A stretch of DNA of 20,000 nucleotides, taken from an uncultured virus (IMG/VR IMGVR_UViG_3300042465_006787) (Duplodnaviria > Heunggongvirae > Uroviricota > Caudoviricetes). The number at the start of each line of letters is the position of its first letter. Within the stretch, counting starts at the first letter, position 1. Location: the IMG/VR virus record IMGVR_UViG_3300042465_006787; one strand, given 5' to 3'. The position numbers and the translations under genes are program-made. Shown piece after piece: positions 987 to 19,969 of the stretch. The notes below the pieces were generated by a model that was given only the letters and a program-made list of their open reading frames with translations, was not told the DNA's origin and made no database searches.

Positions 987-1009
987 AAAGAGGTCGCAAA
1001 AGCGACCTC
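987..1009 (-). terminator. Intrinsic terminator after the zinc-ribbon gene
   Basis: Perfect 8-bp stem GAGGTCGC-TTTT-GCGACCTC (990-997/1002-1009), followed by TTTGTATTT on the minus strand. Confidence 0.75.
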
Positions 1010-1014
1010 AGAGT

Positions 1015-1028
1015 TAGACCTTGTGATT
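1015..1028. repeat. Left arm of a 14-bp inverted repeat flanking ORF 1035..1874
   Basis: TAGACCTTGTGATT matches the reverse complement of 1955-1968 (TAGACCTTGTGGTT) at 13/14 positions. Confidence 0.85.
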
Positions 1029-1034
1029 AGTTTA

Positions 1035-1874
1035 TTAGTATTTTGTGCCACATTGTGGGCAGAACTTATATGTGTCTTTTTTCCTTCTACTGCCACATTC
1101 AGTGCAATATGTAGCCAAATCATCCATTGTTACCAATTGAGTTGATTTGGGTTTTATTTTCCACCAATTTGTGTTAGACGCCCAACTATTGAAAGATGTA
1201 CTATCGTATGTAAAGGATTGATTAGAATTGGAACCCTTTTCAACTCTACCTGTTTCAACCTGTCTTTTAGATTTTTTAACCTTATCGGGGTTGTTTAAGA
1301 ATGTATTTGAGGTACTAAACGTTCCACTTGTTAAAGATGAATTGGAAGTATAAACCGCATTTGTTCCCGTTGTTGTAATACTAGTAGGATTAAATGTATT
1401 CATACCTAAAGTATTATGTGTAGTGTAGGTAAATGGTGTCCCCGTGTTGTTTATCCAACCTGGGTTAGATATCGTTAACGTGCCTGAATTACCGCTATAA
1501 TATGTCGGTGGAGGCGTTTCGTTATAGAACTTAATAACCACATCACCATTATCAGCAATTGCTTCTTGTACTTCTAAATTATCACCATTTACAACATATG
1601 TTTCAAATAAAAACTTCTTTGCCTCATCAAGATATCTTTCGAGGAAAACGCGTTCACCTGGACGAATTATAATACCATTACCAACGGCATTACCATTCAT
1701 CTCAATTTTTGCTAAAACTTTATTGTGTGTTGGATTAAAAAGTTCGATTTCGAACTCATCACCGTTATTAAGATATACGGTGTCAATGTGCTGTTTTAAT
1801 CTTTGTTTACCTTTAGTAATGAAAGATTGTGGTACAGCAAGACCAGTTGTGTTAACTGAAATTCTTCTGTTCAT
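1035..1874 (-). CDS. Hypothetical protein: beta-rich N-terminal domain, T/N/S-rich linker, C-terminal zinc ribbon
   Basis: Start moved to ATG 1874 (MNRRISV, preceded by AAGGAA). The C-terminus has CTECG...CPQCG. Confidence 0.8.
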   Translation of the reverse strand: MNRRISVNTTGLAVPQSFITKGKQRLKQHIDTVYLNNGDEFEIELFNPTHNKVLAKIEMNGNAVGNGIIIRPGERVFLERYLDEAKKFLFETYVVNGDNLEVQEAIADNGDVVIKFYNETPPPTYYSGNSGTLTISNPGWINNTGTPFTYTTHNTLGMNTFNPTSITTTGTNAVYTSNSSLTSGTFSTSNTFLNNPDKVKKSKRQVETGRVEKGSNSNQSFTYDSTSFNSWASNTNWWKIKPKSTQLVTMDDLATYCTECGSRRKKDTYKFCPQCGTKY

Positions 1875-1894
1875 TTCCTTATATTTTTTTGTAT

Positions 1895-1968
1895 TTGAAC
1901 CCGAATTCGTTGGTATCAATTCCAACTCAAATGCCTCTGGGACACTTCGACTTCAACCACAAGGTCTA
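1895..1968 (-). ncRNA. Structured 5' leader RNA (three-way junction), candidate cis-regulatory element
   Basis: Outer stem UUGAAGUCGAA/UUCGGGUUCAA (1946-1956/1895-1905) encloses hairpins GUGUC-CCAGA-GGCAU and GUUGG-AAUUGAUA-CCAAC. The region is GC-richer than other intergenic DNA. Folded by eye only. Confidence 0.5.
1955..1968. repeat. Right arm of the 14-bp inverted repeat
   Basis: AACCACAAGGTCTA, inverted partner of 1015-1028. Confidence 0.85.
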
Positions 1969-1970
1969 GA

Positions 1971-1980
1971 AATAAATATA
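1971..1980 (-). promoter_or_regulatory. Putative promoter (overlapping TATATTTA and TATTTATT motifs)
   Basis: Lies directly downstream of the clpP terminator and 2 nt upstream of the inverted-repeat arm. Confidence 0.5.
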
Positions 1981-11177: not shown

Positions 11178-13280
11178 TTAAAAATCAATTTTTAGTGCAA
11201 AAACTTGTACTCCAGACCTTATAACTGGTTTAGCTGTTTTTGACATCGCCAATACATTTTTACTTGCGTCTAGTAATGCTACCTCTGTAATTCTTTTAGT
11301 TGCACCAGAAATATACGTAGGATTCTGAGTTTGTGTGAATTGTGATGACGGTAGGTTAATCATAAACGTCATAACCTCTAAATCAGATGCTCTGGTTAAC
11401 TTAACACTACCTGGAAATGGTTGACTATCACCAAATTGTGGAAGTGTAGCATCACCGCTAGTTAATGTTGGTTGATAACCAATTAAATTATCTGTTGTTG
11501 ACGTATTTGTTCCGATTGAATATAAAGAACCACCATCTAACATATCTTGACCGATAACAAACTGATAGTCACATAAATTATCAGGATCAATTAAACTACC
11601 AACTGTGTGGTTAGGTATTTGGTCTGTTAAATCTATTACAGTCCAAGAATCTGATTCTGGTTGTGTACTTCCTGAAACTATTTGAACTAATGCTTTAAAC
11701 TTATTTGCTCTAAATCCGCTGGTGCTACCAACTAAATTGGCATTATTATTCATATACTTGAAATCATCAGTATTGAATTTAATTGATGCATTCACAGATA
11801 TACCAGTAACACTATTATAGTAATTACAATGTATCCCACTTAATGCTGTATTTCCTGTTAGTTCTAATTCATATGTGATATATGCTGTTTCACCACTTGT
11901 TATCATTGGCTGATCCCCAACAGTACATGGTAAATCCACCGGAACTGCACTAACTCTTGGTGAAGGTAGTGTGAATCTTCTATTTGATTTGTATTCTAAT
12001 GCTGCTATAATTTCTTGGTCATCAAATACTATTATCTTTTTACCTGTGAAAACTTTACCAACTTTATAACCTTGTTCATCTAAAAGATATCTGAATACAA
12101 CATTATTAGTATTTGGTTTATCGTTCTTACTTGATGTTACATAATAATTTGTTTCATCCATAGTAAACACTGCACCAATAGTGGTACCAGTATTTCTATG
12201 ATATAACATAAACGGAATGTACACTTCGAAACTTAAAATATCATCTTCAGTTTCAGATGCGATGTAATCATCGTATTTAAAAAATCTTTCAGGGTCGTTA
12301 ACCGAATCTCCTAATTCTGAGTAATGTAATATTGCTATTACTCTTTGGTCTTCTGGTTTAACATTAACTTCTTCACCAAATGAATTAACAAATGTTGTTG
12401 GTGTTGATAGTGTTCCTCCAGTAAAATTTGTAAATGTTTGACCTGATGTGCTATTATACCCTAAATATTCTTTTGTTGATGCGTATTGTGTCCCAGTATA
12501 TCCTGTTAAACTTTCATTTGATGCATTTAATCCTGCTGGTTTTTCTGTCCAAACGATTTCCATTCTCCATGGATCATGTGCTGCTGATGGATCTACGGGT
12601 GATGGTGAACAAACAGTTGTTGCTGTAGTATCAGACCCAAACTCAACATCACAATTGTGACATATCACTTGTGCGTAACCACTTAATGATGAGAAGTTTG
12701 GCATAATTCTATCAAACGCTAATTCATTACCCGTTATACCTGTAATTTTATAAACCAAACTATTTGTTTCACCAGTTAATGTTGGTATCTCACCGCAGGT
12801 TCTACTGTTAAAAAGAATTGTGACATATTCACAACCATTGTATGTTGCACCAGTTAAAACTGTTAATAAATTAGTACCATCAACTTGTGATAACGATATT
12901 TCTTGTATCTCACATGCAATTGTTGTTCCAGTACAATCCACTGAATCATATTCAACGTAATCTGAAACGAAACCTGCCGGTCCCATAACATTTTTAATTG
13001 TATCTAACGTATTTTGTTTTATTGGGTTACCGTATGTTAAACTTTCAGATGATGTTAATTTATATGGATACTTTACTTGAGCATCTTTATCCATTGGCGC
13101 CAACACTTTTTGATGTGGTGTTACACCATTCCCAGTGAATCCTGTGAAGTTGTAATCAAATTCAGAATCACCTATTTGGAAATAACTTATTACAAAATTA
13201 CCCTCAGCGATAGATTTTCTACCTTTTTGGGTAATTCTTGCTGTTAAAAATTCTGAATTATTACTGTTTAAAAAGCTCAT
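11178..13280 (-). CDS. Putative baseplate / tail-fibre-anchoring structural protein
   Basis: N-terminal ITQKGRKSIA...YFQIGDSE and C-terminal ITEVALLD...VLAMSK...FALKIDF resemble the two ends of phage tail-collar/baseplate domains. Preceded by TATTTATA. Confidence 0.6.
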   Translation of the reverse strand: MSFLNSNNSEFLTARITQKGRKSIAEGNFVISYFQIGDSEFDYNFTGFTGNGVTPHQKVLAPMDKDAQVKYPYKLTSSESLTYGNPIKQNTLDTIKNVMGPAGFVSDYVEYDSVDCTGTTIACEIQEISLSQVDGTNLLTVLTGATYNGCEYVTILFNSRTCGEIPTLTGETNSLVYKITGITGNELAFDRIMPNFSSLSGYAQVICHNCDVEFGSDTTATTVCSPSPVDPSAAHDPWRMEIVWTEKPAGLNASNESLTGYTGTQYASTKEYLGYNSTSGQTFTNFTGGTLSTPTTFVNSFGEEVNVKPEDQRVIAILHYSELGDSVNDPERFFKYDDYIASETEDDILSFEVYIPFMLYHRNTGTTIGAVFTMDETNYYVTSSKNDKPNTNNVVFRYLLDEQGYKVGKVFTGKKIIVFDDQEIIAALEYKSNRRFTLPSPRVSAVPVDLPCTVGDQPMITSGETAYITYELELTGNTALSGIHCNYYNSVTGISVNASIKFNTDDFKYMNNNANLVGSTSGFRANKFKALVQIVSGSTQPESDSWTVIDLTDQIPNHTVGSLIDPDNLCDYQFVIGQDMLDGGSLYSIGTNTSTTDNLIGYQPTLTSGDATLPQFGDSQPFPGSVKLTRASDLEVMTFMINLPSSQFTQTQNPTYISGATKRITEVALLDASKNVLAMSKTAKPVIRSGVQVFALKIDF

Positions 13281-13284
13281 ATGT

Positions 13285-13292
13285 TATAAATA
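13285..13292 (-). promoter_or_regulatory. TATTTATA putative late-promoter motif
   Basis: 4 nt upstream of ATG 13280. Confidence 0.6.
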
Positions 13293-13311
13293 TCTTTTTT
13301 TATTTTTATCA

Positions 13312-14817
13312 TTAAGGTGCGCATATACTATATCCGACTTGTGCACTATAAGAATTTATTACTCTTGTTTCATTTTCACAATTACCTTGTCCATTATCTA
13401 CAGGTACTGATGTATCAATGGTAAGCGTGCCCGAACTTGTTCCACTACTTATTTCAATTGGATATTCATATGTATTTTCCTGCTGGTAAAGGACATCTAC
13501 CGTAACATTAACATAGGCATATACATCACCAACAGCATTCATTGCATTACCATTACCATCAGTTAATAATGCTGTAATAACGGTATAGAAATATGGTACA
13601 GTATTAGATAAACATTCAGTGGTACCTTGTGAAGAATATTCTGTTATTTGAATACATGCTGACCCCGGTGCCCCGGCCGCACTAGGTGTTAATGTCGGTG
13701 TTGCTGTTAATGTTGGTGTTGGAGTTGGTGTTTGTGTTGGTGTGGTACAATAATTCCATTCACTTAATTCTCCCGAACTACTTATACGAACAACATAGTT
13801 GAATGTACTTCCACTACCATATATTAATATTGAGTAGTACTTGTCACCACCATTTACAACATTACCACCACCACTTATATTTGAATCATATAATGTGTAT
13901 ATTGTTCCTGGTACAATTGACGCCTCATTAACATAGAAAGATGTTGATCCACCTTGTGTTAAACCTGTATACCCCAATGACGATGCTTGGTATGGGTATA
14001 ATCCACATGTATCTGCTAATTGTTGTATATAACCCACTGAACCATCATGTGCCCACGCCGCTGTTAAATATGCCGTTCTTAATGTTGCTGATGGTGGTGG
14101 TGCCGGACAACCTGTTTCACCCTCAACAGCATATACGGTATATTTCGTACCGCCACCTGTTGGGTCAGTAGTTGCCATTTGAGAACCCATAACAACATAA
14201 TAGTAACTCGCACTACCTTCAACTCTGTCACCACTACTAAATGTTCCAGAAACTAATGAATATGACCAAACATCATAATCGCCATCCAAATATCCAGTAA
14301 ATCCTTGATACTCACAAGGTCTTAGTTTATAGTAAACATATGTTGCACTTGGTGTGCTTGTTTGAGTATTTGTCGGTGTTTGAGTTGGTGTACTTGTTTG
14401 AGTTGGGGCTATAACCGATGATGTTGTATTTGTCGGTGTAGCTGTTAGCGTTAATGTTGGCGTGGCCGTTGGGGTCGCACCTTCGGTTGTTGTGTTTGTA
14501 GGTGTTTGAGTAGGTGTACTTGTTGGTGTATTTGTAGCTGTCGCTGTTAAAGTTGGTGTTGGTGTAGCTGTTGGTGTTGGGTCTACTAATGAAACCAAAA
14601 ATATTTGGTCGTCACAACCATTGCAATTAATCTTTACATAAACTTGTGTTAAAGTGTCGCTTAAACCTGTTAAAGCACAACTGCTAGCGGTTATCCCATT
14701 ACATATTGTAGTTCCAGTCACATTATCAGCAGTTAACCCAGTATAAACATATTGAGGAAAATTTGATTGTGAATGATCCGAATCTATTGTAAAATTTATT
14801 GTTACTCCTTTAGCCAT
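13312..14817 (-). CDS. Modular Thr/Pro-repeat, Cys-containing putative virion fibre/decoration protein
   Basis: ~78-aa N-terminal module, two PT tracts and several small beta-rich Cys-bounded domains. Confidence 0.7.
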
Positions 14818-14827
14818 TTATTTATCT

Positions 14828-15118
14828 TTAACATGGAATTAATTCCACTAATCTTATTTGATATCCCCCCTGTTTTTTAGGCGTTGCATTTGGTACTGGT
14901 GTTATATGGTCATCGCAATGTTCAACAAAAACACAAACATATTTTGATGCGCCAGAATATATTATTTGAAATGTTTTTCCATTTAATGGTATGGCAACAT
15001 CAGAAAAAAGCGGTGTTGTTGGTATTGTTTCCCAAGTAGTTCCGGTATAAATGTTATAAACACTACACGGTGTTGTGCTTCCGCTTATATTCGATATTGT
15101 TATATTATATGTTGCCAT
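14828..15118 (-). CDS. Small putative virion protein (N-terminal module only)
   Basis: MATYNITISNISGSTTP resembles the starts of its neighbours. Tight operon spacing. Confidence 0.7.
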   Translation of the reverse strand: MATYNITISNISGSTTPCSVYNIYTGTTWETIPTTPLFSDVAIPLNGKTFQIIYSGASKYVCVFVEHCDDHITPVPNATPKKQGGYQIRLVELIPC

Positions 15119-15122
15119 TATT

Positions 15123-15130
15123 AATAAATA
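15123..15130 (-). promoter_or_regulatory. TATTTATT putative late-promoter motif
   Basis: 4 nt upstream of ATG 15118. Confidence 0.45.
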
Positions 15131-16273
15131 TTATATACATTCTGGATTACCACTACATCCTCCTAATGGCCCGAATCTATAAACACCATTTGGAACTGTC
15201 GTACCAGTTCCCGAACTAGGGGTTGTCATCGCAAGCCACGTTGGTTCCTCCGAACTACATATTGAATATGTGAAATAATCAACACCCTCAATTGTTGCTA
15301 TCCCTTGATACAAAGTTTCGAGGCGATTGTCAGTTGAAAGTGATCCAGGATATCTGTATCTTATACCATATTCTGTTGTGCTAACAGGCGCAGCTTGTGC
15401 AACACGATATGTGTAACATTGACCAAGTGATGCTGTCAGTGTCGGTGTCGGAGTTGGTGTTGGTGATCCTAAACAAGTAAATGTAACCGACCATCCATCA
15501 GAAGGATAAGCCGGATCGGCAAGTGGATTCGCCGGACCAACGTCAACACGTAATTCATAAGACATTCCACTTTGATATGTAAATGTGAACGAACCGGTAC
15601 CATCTGGATCTGTTAAACTTCCCGCAGTTCCCCATGGTCCAAAATATGTGTTATCCGCACCTACCCATCCGCTATCCTCAATTAACATCCCATTTCCGTA
15701 AATATTAAATCTATTTGGTCTATCATACGCAACGTACCCAACACTTATTATTGATTCATCAGTAGCTTCAGATAAATCTAATGCTTGTGTTTGAATCGTA
15801 AAACCTGTTGGAATATAAGTTCCTGTCAATGTATCACCACAACCTGGCAATGGTTCAGCCAAACTAGCCGTAGGTGTTTGCGTTAATGTTAAAGTAGGTG
15901 TCGCTGTTGGTGTTAACCCAATACTAGCAGTTAATGTTTGTGTAGGTGTTTGTGTTAATGTTAAAGTAGGTGTTGCTGTTGGTGTTAATGGTGGTGGAAC
16001 ACATGAAGCACTTAAATCAAAATCAATTGTATCATATAATGGGTATGCTTTACTATCGTGAATATATATATTTTCAATAATATATCTATTTGTAACCAAA
16101 TCTGTCAGTTTAATATAATATTGCGTGTCGAATTCAAATGGGGCACCACTAATTGTTGCTGTGGATGTCGTACCTGTAAGAGCTGTTGTAAATGAACCGT
16201 ATGGCGAGGTTGAATACGCCACGCTATACGATGTTGACCCACTAATATTAATTAATCTTATTGAAACACCCAT
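15131..16273 (-). CDS. Modular Thr/Pro-repeat putative virion protein
   Basis: N-terminal module, PT tract, beta-sandwich-like domain (YDRPNRFNIYGNG...DSGWVG), short PT tract and a Cys-bounded C-terminal domain. Confidence 0.7.
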   Translation of the reverse strand: MGVSIRLINISGSTSYSVAYSTSPYGSFTTALTGTTSTATISGAPFEFDTQYYIKLTDLVTNRYIIENIYIHDSKAYPLYDTIDFDLSASCVPPPLTPTATPTLTLTQTPTQTLTASIGLTPTATPTLTLTQTPTASLAEPLPGCGDTLTGTYIPTGFTIQTQALDLSEATDESIISVGYVAYDRPNRFNIYGNGMLIEDSGWVGADNTYFGPWGTAGSLTDPDGTGSFTFTYQSGMSYELRVDVGPANPLADPAYPSDGWSVTFTCLGSPTPTPTPTLTASLGQCYTYRVAQAAPVSTTEYGIRYRYPGSLSTDNRLETLYQGIATIEGVDYFTYSICSSEEPTWLAMTTPSSGTGTTVPNGVYRFGPLGGCSGNPECI

Positions 16274-16278
16274 AATAG

Positions 16279-16286
16279 TATAAATA
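16279..16286 (-). promoter_or_regulatory. TATTTATA putative late-promoter motif
   Basis: 5 nt upstream of ATG 16273, directly after a terminator. Confidence 0.6.
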
Positions 16287-16306
16287 CCTTTACATATAAT
16301 TTAAAT

Positions 16307-16334
16307 AAAAAACCCCTTAAAATAAAGGGGTTTT
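16307..16334 (-). terminator. Intrinsic terminator
   Basis: AAAACCCCTT-6 nt-AAGGGGTTTT stem with a T tract. Confidence 0.8.
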
Positions 16335-16355
16335 AATCAGTTATAAGTCAAAAGA

Positions 16356-16874
16356 TTATGGGGCACTACCGCTACAATCACTTATTGTTGAAATCATGCC
16401 TCCTGCCGCAACATTAAATAATCCAAATGTTAAACCATCGTTGAAATAGTAACCCGAAGTTAATGGTGTACCAGTTTGGTCTTCATATAGATAATCTCCT
16501 GACATTAATGAACTTAAAAGACCGTCGTAGAATACTGTTACAGGTAATGCGGTTCCTGTGTTACAAGCATTTATATCTGATGTACCATAATAGAATACGC
16601 TATTTGATGTGTGTTCGCCGCCACCGCCGCCACCGCCACCACCAGTTACCGAACTAATGTCCACTGTATCTAATGTGCTACAAGTTCCAGAACTTTCTAC
16701 TCTAATAGATTCGTCTAAAGAAGTTATATTTTGAATCAAATATCCACTTAATATTGTTGCTCTAGTAACATTTAAAAATGTTTGTGTTGCGGTATTACCA
16801 CTATCTCTAACGGTAACCGTAAAAGGTCCCACAGATAATGATGGTGTTGTTGAAAAACTAATTGTTATGTCCAT
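16356..16874 (-). CDS. Two-domain putative virion protein with poly-Gly linker
   Basis: N-terminal module (VGPFTV...VESSGTC), G9 linker and a C-terminal C...LYED...GYY...C domain. Confidence 0.75.
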   Translation of the reverse strand: MDITISFSTTPSLSVGPFTVTVRDSGNTATQTFLNVTRATILSGYLIQNITSLDESIRVESSGTCSTLDTVDISSVTGGGGGGGGGEHTSNSVFYYGTSDINACNTGTALPVTVFYDGLLSSLMSGDYLYEDQTGTPLTSGYYFNDGLTFGLFNVAAGGMISTISDCSGSAP

Positions 16875-16875
16875 G

Positions 16876-16909
16876 TTTTATATTTTATATTTTATATTTT
16901 ATATTTTAT
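16876..16909. repeat. 7-bp tandem repeat (TTTTATA) x ~4.9
   Basis: Fills nearly all of the intergenic spacer. Confidence 0.9.
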
Positions 16910-18000
16910 GTTAAATTAATACACACTGCGTATTCTATTAATTTACAAGTTGGCGTTTCTGGATCAGATGTATCTAAAACATATCCACTTGCGCAACTAT
17001 AATTAGTACAGAAACCTTGTCCGTATTTTGAACCAGCGCCTACGTTTTCAATAAATTGAACGGAGCCCGCCGAAGCAGCTGTTGTTACACCAGATATCGC
17101 CCTAGCTGGTAAATAATCACCAGTTGAGAATATTATATTTAAACTACTTGCTGAAGTTGCACCAGTTAATTGTGCCAATGTGTTGTCATATATTTCCGCT
17201 GCGTAATCTCCAACAGAACCAGCATTATAGTTTGATAATTCAACAATATTTGGCCCAGCGTTTAACACATATGGATAAACGTGCCAATATTTAAAGTTGT
17301 TTGACGCAGTTGTAGATCCGCCAACTGTCGTTCCACCTGCTGGTTGGTCTACTATTGTTGTTCCATTAACTTTAATCATAATCTCATTATCACCAGCAAT
17401 GCCTATATAATAAACCTTGGTTGTTGCAACATTTATTGTTGTACAAAAACTAAGTGTGCCAACATAATTTGGGTTTCCACTAACCCAAACTCCGTTATAA
17501 TTCATTCTATTAGCCCAGAATAATTCACTAACTGTCATACTAGCGTTAGTTCCAAAATAGCTACCGTTATATGCGTAATTACCACTAGTTGAACTACCAT
17601 TTAAATTGAAATCACTAACATTGTATATCAAAACACCAAAATCGCCATAAGCACCGTTAGCGGCGCCAGTTCCTGGTTGTTTTGTGTCTACTGACGTTGC
17701 ACTTGTTATTGTTACTTTATAACAACCTAAACCATCATTTGTCACCGTATATCCCTCATCACACAAGCAAACAGGTCCACTATCAAATGTATATGGTCCA
17801 ACACTATTATTACAAGTACCCGAACTAGTTAAAGTAATACCAGTATATATCCCCATATCAATATCATATACTTGACCGGTTGATAGGTCGTTATACGATT
17901 GAGTAGAAAATAATAAAGCGTTCCCAGGTGTGCCAATTATATCAAAAGGCCCACTATTTGTGGAAGATCCAGCCGCTAATGTTATTGTTACGTATGCCAT
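16906..18000 (-). CDS. Putative virion protein with PA14-like carbohydrate-binding domain flanked by CxxGY modules
   Basis: N-terminal module (SGPFDI...TSSGTC), CDEGY and CASGY motifs, and PA14-like YYIGIAGDNEIMIKVNG...LNAGPNIVEL. Confidence 0.65.
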   Translation of the reverse strand: MAYVTITLAAGSSTNSGPFDIIGTPGNALLFSTQSYNDLSTGQVYDIDMGIYTGITLTSSGTCNNSVGPYTFDSGPVCLCDEGYTVTNDGLGCYKVTITSATSVDTKQPGTGAANGAYGDFGVLIYNVSDFNLNGSSTSGNYAYNGSYFGTNASMTVSELFWANRMNYNGVWVSGNPNYVGTLSFCTTINVATTKVYYIGIAGDNEIMIKVNGTTIVDQPAGGTTVGGSTTASNNFKYWHVYPYVLNAGPNIVELSNYNAGSVGDYAAEIYDNTLAQLTGATSASSLNIIFSTGDYLPARAISGVTTAASAGSVQFIENVGAGSKYGQGFCTNYSCASGYVLDTSDPETPTCKLIEYAVCINLT

Positions 18001-18010
18001 ATTTGTCTAC

Positions 18011-18018
18011 TATAAATA
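18011..18018 (-). promoter_or_regulatory. TATTTATA putative late-promoter motif
   Basis: 10 nt upstream of ATG 18000. Confidence 0.6.
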
Positions 18019-18046
18019 TACTATTATTTCAAATTATTCTAAAGGT

Positions 18047-19969
18047 TTAGCATCCAAAACAACTATTTAATGCAACTAATCCAATTATGTAGTTTTGTGA
18101 ACCGTTTGATGCTGGGTTTACGTCCATAATCCAAGCATCGGTTATGATTTCATAATTTTGTAAAGCTGGTCCATTTACAGTACTAGCACAAAAATAACCA
18201 TTAAGTATTGTTATAGTATGCGCGGTATCAGTACCTAAATCACCAATTATTCTCACATCAACGGTAACATTTGTGTTCACCGAAACATCGGAATTTACTT
18301 GTACCGTTGTACTATTATTACCACCAGCCATTACACAAGCACTAATTACAACATCTGTTGCGTTTGGATTACACTCAATACATCCAACTGGTGGTGTTGA
18401 GTAATATTCACAACCGTATCCACAGTTGTAATAACCTAGATAAGCTGTTGTTGTTGGTGTAGGTGTTGGCGTTGACGTTAAGGTTAACGTTGGCGTATTA
18501 GTAGGTGTTGATGTTAACGTAGGTGTGTTTGTCGCTGTTAATGTAGGTGTACTTGTTGATGTTTGTGTAGGCGTGTTTGTTGCGGTTAATGTAGGTGTGT
18601 TTGTTGATGTTTGTGTTGGTGTGTTAGTAGGCGTTGATGTTAACGTAGGTGTATTAGTTGCAGTTAATGTAGGTGTACTTGTTGCAGTTAATGTTGGTGT
18701 ATTAGTTGCGGTTAATGTAGGTGTACTTGTTGCAGTTAATGTTGGTGTCGGAGTTGGTGTAGGTGTGTTAACAACATATTGAATTGCGAAATTACAGTCA
18801 ATAGTTGGTGTATTAGTAGGTGTACTAGTTAAAGTTTGTGTTGGTGTGTTAGTAGGTGTTGATGTTAATGTAGGCGTGTTTGTCAACGTTAACGTAGGTG
18901 TATTAGTTGATGTTAATGTTGGTGTATTAGTTGCAGTTAATGTAGGTGTACTAGTTAAAGTTTGAGTAGGTGTATTAGTATTAGTAGGTGTTAATGTTGG
19001 TGTAGCTGTTAAAGTTTGTGTCGGAGTTGGTGTAGGTGTGTTAACAACATATTGAATTGCGAAATTACAGTCAATAGTTGGTGTATTAGTAGGTGTACTA
19101 GTTAAAGTTAATGTTGGTGTGTTTGTTGGTGTTTCCGTAGGTGTTAACGTAGGTGTTAGCGTAGGTGTTAATGTTGGTGTATTAGTTGCGGTTAATGTAG
19201 GTGTGTTTGTAGGTGTGTTTGTTGGTGTTTCCGTAGGTGTACTTGTCAACGTTAATGTAGGTGTATTCGTAGGTGTTAACGTTGGTGTCGGAGTTGGTGT
19301 TGGTGTTGCAGTATTAACAACGTATTGAATTGCAAAATTACAATCAATAGTTGGGGTATTAGTAGGTGTGCTTGTCAACGTTAATGTAGGCGTATTCGTA
19401 GGTGTTTCAGTCGGGGTTAACGTAGGTGTTTCAGTAGGTGTTGATGTTGGCGTCTCTGTAGGTGTGCTTGTCAACGTTAATGTAGGCGTATTCGTAGGTG
19501 TTAATGTAGGTGTAGGTGTAGGTGTTGGTGTTGCAGTATTAACAACGTATTGAATGCTAAAGTCACAATCAATTGTTGCTGTAGGTGTTAACGTAGGTGT
19601 GTTTGTCGGTGTTTCTGTTAATGTAGGTGTAGGTGTCGCTGTCGGTGTTTCTGTTAATGTTGGTGTAGGTGTTGCTGTTGGGGTCTCTGTAGGTGTATTA
19701 GTTGGTGTTTGTGTTGGGATTGGTGTAGGTAAAATATAAGTAATGTCCGAATTACAACTATCGTTATATAAAATTATTGTTGTAATAGAATCTGGCATCG
19801 ACACTAAAACTCCTGGACTAGTCGTTAAATCACTATATGATAAATTCGTAGCAGGATTACTATTTGAAAATAAAGTTGCAATATTAGAAACATTTACACT
19901 ATCATAATATACCGTATACGGTCCTTGTGAAGTGCCTCCTGTTATTAATATGTGATATTTTTTTGCCAT
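18047..19969 (-). CDS. Mucin-like Thr-x repeat putative virion protein
   Basis: N-terminal module (QGPYTV...DSC), a >400-aa T-x tract interrupted by four IDC(N/D)F(A/S)IQYVVN blocks, and a Cys-rich C-terminal region. Confidence 0.8.
18745..19109. repeat. Exact 92-bp direct repeat (18745-18836 = 19018-19109) within the coding tandem-repeat region
   Basis: Direct comparison of the two segments, offset 273 nt. Confidence 0.9.

Follow-up and report, generated by a model that had tools for sequence, protein, structure and literature searches.

To our knowledge, experiments have demonstrated end-to-end pairing of a bacterial-type mRNA in few cases, namely hbs, icaR and the type I toxins, and each time in one species. 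In the hok/sok and aapA1/IsoA1 systems, which encode small toxic peptides and are controlled by antisense RNAs, the full-length mRNA is closed by pairing between its two ends and stays silent until the 3' end is trimmed. In the icaR mRNA of S. aureus, the 3' untranslated region (UTR) reportedly pairs with the Shine-Dalgarno (SD) region, blocks translation and invites ribonuclease (RNase) III. This 3' UTR pairs in cis with the 5' UTR of its own mRNA (PMC3868564). For hbs of B. subtilis, Braun, Durand and Condon (2017, PMC5737220) describe a 14-nucleotide (nt) segment of the 5' UTR that pairs just upstream of the terminator, with a free energy of -19 kcal/mol. In this mRNA, mutation of either arm speeds the decay of the primary transcript, the compensatory double mutant restores stability, and the end pairing limits endonuclease cleavage in the leader (PMC5737220). 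Here we analyze a 20,000-nt stretch of DNA from an uncultured virus of the Caudoviricetes (IMG/VR record IMGVR_UViG_3300042465_006787), which we call the window. On its minus strand, a gene for a protein of 279 amino acids (aa) is predicted to give an mRNA whose first bases are complementary to bases between its stop codon and its terminator, with a structured leader in between. We conclude from the comparative data that the RNA closure is real and under selection and that the leader next to it is a new motif, and we propose a function for it by analogy with the systems above.

The 5' arm of the closing helix (1968-1954, TAGACCTTGTGGTTG) and its 3' arm (1029-1015, TAATCACAAGGTCTA) form 15 contiguous pairs, two of which are G.U (G1957.U1026 and G1954.U1029), and the core of the 3' arm begins 6 nt past the stop codon (1037-1035). 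A sequence-only reading of this DNA had claimed an end helix of 14-15 base pairs (bp) at these positions, with its 3' arm 6 nt past the stop codon, with the lone DNA mismatch of a 14-bp core turning into a G.U pair on the coding strand, and with terminators on both sides of the unit. All of this is borne out, the two terminator hairpins (2022-1994 and 1009-990) both lying on the minus strand. RNAduplex gives -22.4 kcal/mol for the first 29 nt against the 25-nt 3' UTR. Dinucleotide shuffles of both short flanks give a mean of -9.3 (standard deviation 2.7), and 1 of 2000 shuffles is equally good. We assessed the copy number of the arm motif in the 20-kb window (0-1 mismatch) and in one relative of 90,962 bp, and in each of them only the two arms were found. 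An arm-like motif (AAGACCTTGTGAGT), two mismatches away from the arm pattern, is also present in a local hairpin (14303-14323) inside a 501-aa open reading frame (ORF) of the minus strand, probably by chance.

Homologous loci were collected from IMG/VR in two rounds. A protein search with the single sequence gave 38 loci and one with a 16-sequence alignment gave 117, and 80 of these 117 were kept. They represent 57 distinct combinations of leader and 3' UTR, 56 of them with both ends. The register of the helix was anchored on the invariant ACCUUGU, ungapped, because duplex folding of long flanks gave uninterpretable extended interactions. In this first set the helix is in register in all 56 loci, with 9-15 contiguous pairs. 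The layout known from hbs, in which complementary segments of about 14 nt lie in the 5' UTR and in the 3' UTR before the terminator, is found in the window (15 bp); of the 56 loci, all have the helix and 55 have a terminator after the arm. A second, more distant scan with eight divergent members gave at least 278 relatives, of which 80 were kept; after the removal of duplicates and known loci these comprise 29 new distinct loci, one further locus having been set aside since there is no stop codon in its stored DNA. A sequence-blind search for the longest helix between the flanks puts the helix at the expected place in 23 of the 29, and reading of the other six reveals it in four more (L247, 10 bp; L301, 9 bp; L289, 12 bp; L287, 9 + 5 bp with a bulged G), which makes 27/29. 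Overall, 83 of the 85 distinct loci keep the closure. The sequence-only reading had looked to the 5' and 3' UTRs of homologues for complementarity with compensatory changes, and had named homologues without flanking complementarity as the finding that would speak against it; both the complementarity and the compensatory changes were found. The contigs of the relatives are mostly 50-330 kb, and we therefore regard the relatives as jumbo phages. The DNA of the window itself is present in freshwater and lake metagenomes.

Selection on the pairing also shows in lineages in which the arms have been rewritten. In three of them, namely L293 (10 bp), L289/L306 (12 bp) and L312 (11 bp), the letters of the arms are wholly different at the same positions. 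It is the pairing that is kept and not the letters. The placement of the 3' arm is kept as well. It begins 4-10 nt past the stop codon in 54/56 loci, and when the ORF is extended at its C-terminal end, as in L088 and L124, it tracks the new stop codon. In 55/56 loci the next element after the 3' arm is a terminator-like hairpin, and the sequences of these hairpins are unrelated. The sole locus of the 56 without such a hairpin, L085, has a mismatch in the core of the 3' arm too (CACAATGTC) and may be a decaying copy.

Position by position, with C0 at window position 1964, the helix is paired in 50-56 of the 56 loci from -2 to +6 and in 42-50 from +7 to +10. Pairing drops to 32/56 at -4 and to 7/56 at +11, and the helix thus has sharp edges. 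At position -2, 35 loci have G-C and 15 have A-U, and the protein tree requires at least four changes on each side; at position +6 the counts are 43 for G-C and 9 for U-A, and at position +7 they are 39 for G.U, 7 for A-U and 2 for G-C. In a plain MAFFT alignment of whole transcripts (A3), which has three misaligned rows (L086, L088 and L090), 88.7% of the cells of the long-range helix are paired and five pairs have changed on both sides. When the partners are slid by 1-3 columns in this alignment, 33-42% of the cells of the whole structure are paired. Partition-function folding of 12 diverse full-length mRNAs (about 900-1030 nt) gives a probability of 0.86-1.0 for the closing helix in 12/12, with the arms about 900 nt apart.

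Covariation of this kind does not by itself point to RNA, because two copies of one DNA site would covary too. The arms could be inverted copies of a protein-binding or recombination site that serves inversion, looping or insulation, and the neighbours of the gene do differ between phages. However, the 728 helix cells comprise 599 Watson-Crick pairs, 81 G.U or U.G pairs on the sense strand, 13 A.C or C.A cells, which are wobbles on the antisense strand, and 35 others; the copies therefore differ by transitions that keep pairing on the sense strand only. The leader helices are likewise rich in sense-strand G.U pairs, and some closing helices are bulged, variable in length or shifted at their ends. 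The placement of the arms is exact as well, one lying between the promoter and the leader and the other between the stop codon and the terminator. Among the nine window ORFs scanned with Pfam there is no recombinase family, and the aligned contigs, all from RNA libraries, show no inversion joint. Because of the sense-strand wobble bias, the G.U pairs of the leader and the placement of the arms at the expected transcript ends, we read the arms as RNA and regard a DNA-level site as very improbable. The sequence-only reading had argued for selection on RNA pairing from the window alone, and the homologues support it. We consider it highly likely that a helix between the ends of this mRNA is under selection.

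Behind the 5' arm follows a Y-shaped leader, in which a P1-P2 stem bears the hairpins P3 and P4 (Table 1). The roughly 95 nt from the arm to the start codon are conserved above the level of the protein. The values for P1-P4 in Table 1 rest on A3, an alignment that was not fitted to the structure. A covariance model of the leader finds one sense-strand match per locus in 56 of 58 sources, with two weak antisense matches (E 0.35), and gives no match in L289 and L310 at E <= 1. Its only sense-strand match in the window is at 1872-1983 on the minus strand (E 3.4e-23). In Rfam 15, searched at E up to 10, no match is centred on the leader, and the matches listed are all far below gathering scores and mostly on the two terminator hairpins. 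By these searches the leader is a new motif, a three-way junction without an Rfam family. A hammerhead-like CUGAUGAG, seen by eye in a few leaders, was dropped, as it is missing from most loci and Rfam has no match for it. We also scanned IMG/VR with a loose leader pattern. Among the matches listed are 80 loci, of which 72 are chance matches and two more (L139 and L187, identical over 180 nt) are chance matches inside a coding region; the other six are leader-like matches before the same gene family, two confirmed by reading and four by motif only.

Table 1. Features of the closed unit in the window, in order of transcription
Feature	Position	Strand	Basis or remark
Intrinsic-terminator-like hairpin of upstream Clp-protease gene	1994-2022	minus	13-pair stem followed by T run; insulates the unit on its 5' side
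-10-like promoter element TATATTTATT	1971-1980	minus	Sequence; similar element at fixed distance in relatives
5' arm of closing helix	1954-1968	minus	Invariant core ACCUUGU at 1965-1959; 1956-1954 alternatively in P1
Structured leader, predicted three-way junction	1895-1956	minus	Covariation, covariance model
P1	1956-1952 with 1899-1895	minus	A3: 96.4% of cells paired, 3 pairs changed on both sides
P2	1950-1946 with 1905-1901	minus	A3: 93.2% of cells paired, 5/5 pairs changed on both sides
P3	1945-1941 with 1935-1931	minus	A3: 100% of cells paired, 3 pairs changed on both sides
Conserved junction UUGAG, between P3 and P4	1930-1926	minus	
P4	1926-1922 with 1913-1909	minus	A3: 100% of cells paired, 1 pair changed on both sides
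A-rich linker with near-invariant AUAAGG (AAGG 1880-1877), 2 nt before start codon	1875-1894	minus	Conservation
ORF, 279 aa	1035-1874	minus	Ig-like beta-sandwich, disordered middle, conserved ETGRVEKG segment, zinc ribbon
3' arm of closing helix	1015-1029	minus	Starts 5-6 nt past stop codon
Intrinsic-terminator-like hairpin of the unit itself	990-1009	minus	Starts 6 nt after 3' arm

The closing helix ends where P1 begins, and bases 1956-1954 are able to join either helix; the two helices can thus stack or compete. We suggest the following sequence of events. Transcription would start a few bases upstream of ACCUUGU, and the first bases of the transcript would pair with the stretch between the stop codon and the terminator to give a closing helix of 10-15 bp. 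This helix would abut P1 of the Y-shaped leader and could stack on it, so that the 5' terminus, the 3' UTR and the leader would form one compact domain. In this domain the junction would be some 25 nt away from the start codon and some 5-10 nt away from the stop codon. Such folding would hide the leader and the 5' end from 5'-end-dependent and endonucleolytic decay, the closing helix would back up the terminator against 3' exonucleases, and only full-length transcripts would be long-lived. We arrive at protection because of the precedent of hbs and because one lineage (L310/L314) has a local 5' hairpin in place of the closure, in keeping with a requirement for pairing at the 5' end. By this analogy the balance of probability is somewhat in favour of a conserved RNA architecture that acts in cis in a single monocistronic mRNA of jumbo phages and protects its ends and its leader from ribonucleases. 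The structural claim is far more secure than the functional claim. The sequence-only reading had gone further and spoken of an undescribed phage module with selected end pairing, whose mRNA is closed, processed, circularised or bound by its own product. The module itself stands, with a pairing that is kept and covaries and with no description found; none of the four fates is singled out.

The ends of the transcript are predicted from the sequence around the arms. A -10-like element, TATAYTTAT, ends 5-8 nt upstream of the arm in nearly all of the 56 loci, and in many relatives TTTACA lies about 16-17 nt further upstream. We infer a transcript start at about 1968-1966. The promoter-like motif of the sequence-only reading holds in part. 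The -10-like TATATTTATT is present at 1980-1971, but the -35 position of the window is occupied by the T-tract of the upstream terminator, and a consensus promoter scan of the window has no site at this start among the best 60 of 97. The upstream ORF (2056-2724) matches Pfam CLP_protease (E 2.3e-54). The evidence from RNA consists of assembled library contigs aligned to the window, and contigs cannot show transcript ends. Four studies supply contigs over 1652-1968, a range that takes in the leader and the 5' half of the gene, and the contig X15 does not differ from the window across 180 nt. The stretch 982-1145, which includes the 3' arm, is without contig cover, which tells nothing either way. 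The cover is consistent with expression in lakes and is not proof of it, since metatranscriptome libraries may hold DNA. A separate feature of this region is a 42-nt imperfect inverted repeat (1852-1893 against 1967-2008, 74% complementary), in which the promoter and -10 region CCCTTATATTT is complementary to the start region AAATATAAGG. Only read-through RNA from upstream would contain both halves, and in such RNA the start site could be masked. By eye, CCTTATA is found in the -10 region of roughly a dozen of the 56 relatives, and the pairing of this repeat is thus not universal.

Several observations weigh against protection by a selected end closure, or take weight from the evidence for it. 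Two of the 85 loci, L310 and L314 of one lineage, are without a 3' partner; at the position of the 5' arm, directly before the leader and about 100-130 nt upstream of the ATG, they have a local 6-bp hairpin. Just two contigs (X16 record 8 and X17 record 9) reach as far as the 5' arm, and they run on for 38 and 52 nt upstream, where the relatives have their promoter region; these contigs past the predicted start are either read-through RNA or DNA carry-over in the libraries. The covariation cells are not independent events, and much of the diversity lies within few clades, while the invariant 7-bp core is uninformative either way. Finally, an alignment of the leader fitted to the covariance model has 97% of its cells paired and 17/20 pairs changed on both sides, and as it was fitted to the structure it leans toward the model.

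The same helix could instead be a substrate. Stems that flank rRNAs and the early mRNAs of T7 span about two helical turns and are cleaved by RNase III. In our unit, the closing helix stacked on P1 and P2 could make a quasi-continuous duplex of about two turns, to be cut by an RNase III-type enzyme that trims the tip of the leader and the terminator and leaves protected mature ends. The closing helix (10-15 bp), P1 (5 bp) and P2 (5 bp) are adjacent and the closing helix encloses the whole gene, as rRNA processing stems enclose theirs. L289 and L306 have a longer closure of about 21 bp in total, to which an outer helix beyond a small internal loop contributes 8-9 bp, and no recognisable terminator comes after it. 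Nevertheless, the 21-25 bp of the general case are reached only if the helices stack. The continuous duplex is just 10-15 bp in most loci, a mismatch splits P1 from P2, and the 6-bp local hairpin of L310/L314 is too short for an RNase III-type enzyme. Among the assembled contigs, which cannot show transcript ends, none with staggered ends was seen. We consider a processing stem unlikely, though with a chance worth keeping in mind. Somewhat in the same range, and also unlikely, is a closed-loop mRNA in which the helix and the junction would hold the stop and start codons side by side, so that ribosome recycling, translation rate and mRNA lifetime are coupled. A terminating ribosome would have to melt part of the helix, would be freed beside the AUAAGG start site and could re-initiate on the same message. 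Such a loop would be alike in function to the eukaryotic cap-poly(A) loop and to the cyclisation of some RNA-virus genomes, and here RNA pairing alone would make it.

The start region suggests a further possibility, a translation switch. The 5' arm (CCUUGUG) could pair with AUAAGG at the ribosome-binding site (RBS) and block initiation until the better-matched 3' arm displaces it, and translation would then be confined to completed transcripts. Given the leaders without the rest of the mRNA, RNAalifold does predict pairing of the 5' arm with the RBS. This pairing is 94.6% paired over the 56 loci, and one of its pairs has changed on both sides (G.U in 31, U-A in 9 and G-C in 4). The RBS is also exceptional in the genome: an SD-like tetramer is found upstream of 3/19 window ORFs, and only at the 279-aa ORF is it near the ATG. 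Such rarity would fit a host that does not rely on these motifs, presumably one like the Bacteroidota. The 3' arm itself contains AAGG. Against this, most of the arm:RBS pairs are invariant and hence uninformative, the one variable pair is broken in 12/56 loci, and the RBS motif is altered in L117 and in the L097 group. When the 12 diverse mRNAs are cut before the 3' arm, the probability of the arm:RBS pairing is at most 0.15. The accessibility of the start region is alike with and without the 3' arm (0.57-0.88 against 0.58-0.85, within 0.07 per locus). We rank the switch low because folding shows the start region equally open without the 3' arm; its chance appears slim. Nor does the unit resemble icaR in this respect, as the 3' arm is complementary to the 5' end and not to the RBS, whose AAGG it shares. 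Silencing of the type I toxin kind would require that the closure keeps the full-length mRNA inert until its 3' end is processed, as in hok and aapA1. The three-part layout is the same, with a 5' element, a complement near the start and a complement at the 3' end. However, the start region is predicted to be open in the closed form, and instead of a small hydrophobic peptide the ORF encodes a soluble-looking protein of 279 aa that has a beta-sandwich and a zinc ribbon. We regard this explanation as the most improbable of all. The analogy with hok and aapA that the sequence-only reading had drawn therefore holds for the architecture and fails for the product, which is not a small toxin.

A last alternative concerns the encoded protein. 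The AlphaFold model, with a predicted local distance difference test (pLDDT) value of 60.8, shows an immunoglobulin (Ig)-like beta-sandwich made of residues 15-120 and two C-terminal strands, a disordered middle rich in Ser, Thr and Asn (124-204) and a C-terminal zinc ribbon. The four cysteines of the CxxC...CxxC motif are invariant in 16/16 aligned homologues, and the only Pfam match of the protein, Zn_Ribbon_1 (PF13240), scores 21.7 bits against a gathering cut-off of 25. We asked whether the junction and the closing helix may be a putative site for this zinc-ribbon protein or for a host protein, which would repress or stabilise its own message. Conservation of the leader exceeds both what its helices need and that of the protein, UUGAG and P4 hardly vary, and every true copy of the leader that was found goes with this one gene family. 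The fold, on the other hand, is generic. The best VIA-align hits are Ig-like domains of that kind (Z 6.6), and Foldseek of the model against the PDB gives no match with E <= 0.001. Autoregulation is compatible with protection; as an explanation of the element we find it improbable.

A PHROGs search with the 279-aa protein gave no match, blastn of 700-2300 against 50,697 phage records gave none either, and the ESM Atlas returned viral hypothetical proteins only. The best BFVD match is a protein of an uncultured marine phage (E 1e-17). At E 1e-8 to 1e-3, Foldseek against BFVD also gave uncharacterised proteins of giant viruses, nudiviruses, nimaviruses and iridoviruses, such as ranavirus ICP-18 and wsv390. 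These matches have TM-scores of 0.23-0.44 and a high root-mean-square deviation, and they may therefore reflect only the layout of a beta-sandwich with zinc binding. One BFVD relative is named 'SHOCT domain-containing', and in one Atlas cluster SHOCT is found in 10% of members. At 50% identity, the family comprises 2537 clusters in metagenomes for E <= 0.001 and 1076 for E <= 1e-30. In some relatives (L088, L090, L124, L302, L305 and L316) the protein continues beyond the zinc ribbon for about 60-70 aa, for a total of 330-341 aa, and the 3' arm comes after the new stop codon. Elsewhere in the window, at about 12400-19700, repeats recur densely with a period of 6, 12 or 24 nt; on the plus strand they are GTTGGTGTT-like, and family D1 has 91 copies. 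They sit in large minus-strand ORFs (700, 501, 380, 364 and 640 aa), which may encode repetitive structural or fibre proteins; a Pfam scan of the 700-, 501- and 640-aa ORFs gave no match.

Our literature searches for a prior description of this combination of closure and leader element found none. The comparative data alone support closure in uncultured freshwater jumbo phages, through the complete turnover of the paired letters, and the gene family is very common in metagenomes. The element is a compact natural model for the control of mRNA fate by end pairing, and it may serve as a portable stabilising cassette. The local hairpin of L310/L314 and the 21-bp closure of L289/L306 that lacks a terminator are ready-made experimental controls.

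Compared with the known systems, the unit shares with the RNase III stems that complementary flanks enclose a whole functional RNA, and it differs in the length of the helix, which is 10-15 bp in most loci. The mRNAs of ompA and ermC have leaders whose 5' terminus is paired, which protects against 5'-end-dependent decay. The hairpin of L310/L314 is a local counterpart of this arrangement, whereas most loci use a partner about 900 nt downstream. With hok and aapA1 the unit shares an end pairing that closes the mRNA, but its ORF of 279 aa has no toxin features. Unlike in icaR, the partner of the 3' arm is the extreme 5' end, and the start region is predicted to be open. The closest likeness is to hbs (PMC5737220). 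Both mRNAs are monocistronic, with a highly structured 5' UTR and a pairing of about 14 nt before the terminator, and the free energies are similar (-19 kcal/mol there, -22.4 kcal/mol here). However, the fold of the hbs leader, its gene and its host are unrelated to those of the phage unit. The 5' segment of hbs lies downstream of two hairpins, whereas ours is at the predicted 5' terminus. In addition, the case for hbs comes from mutagenesis in one species (PMC5737220), and the case made here comes from natural covariation over 83 phage loci.

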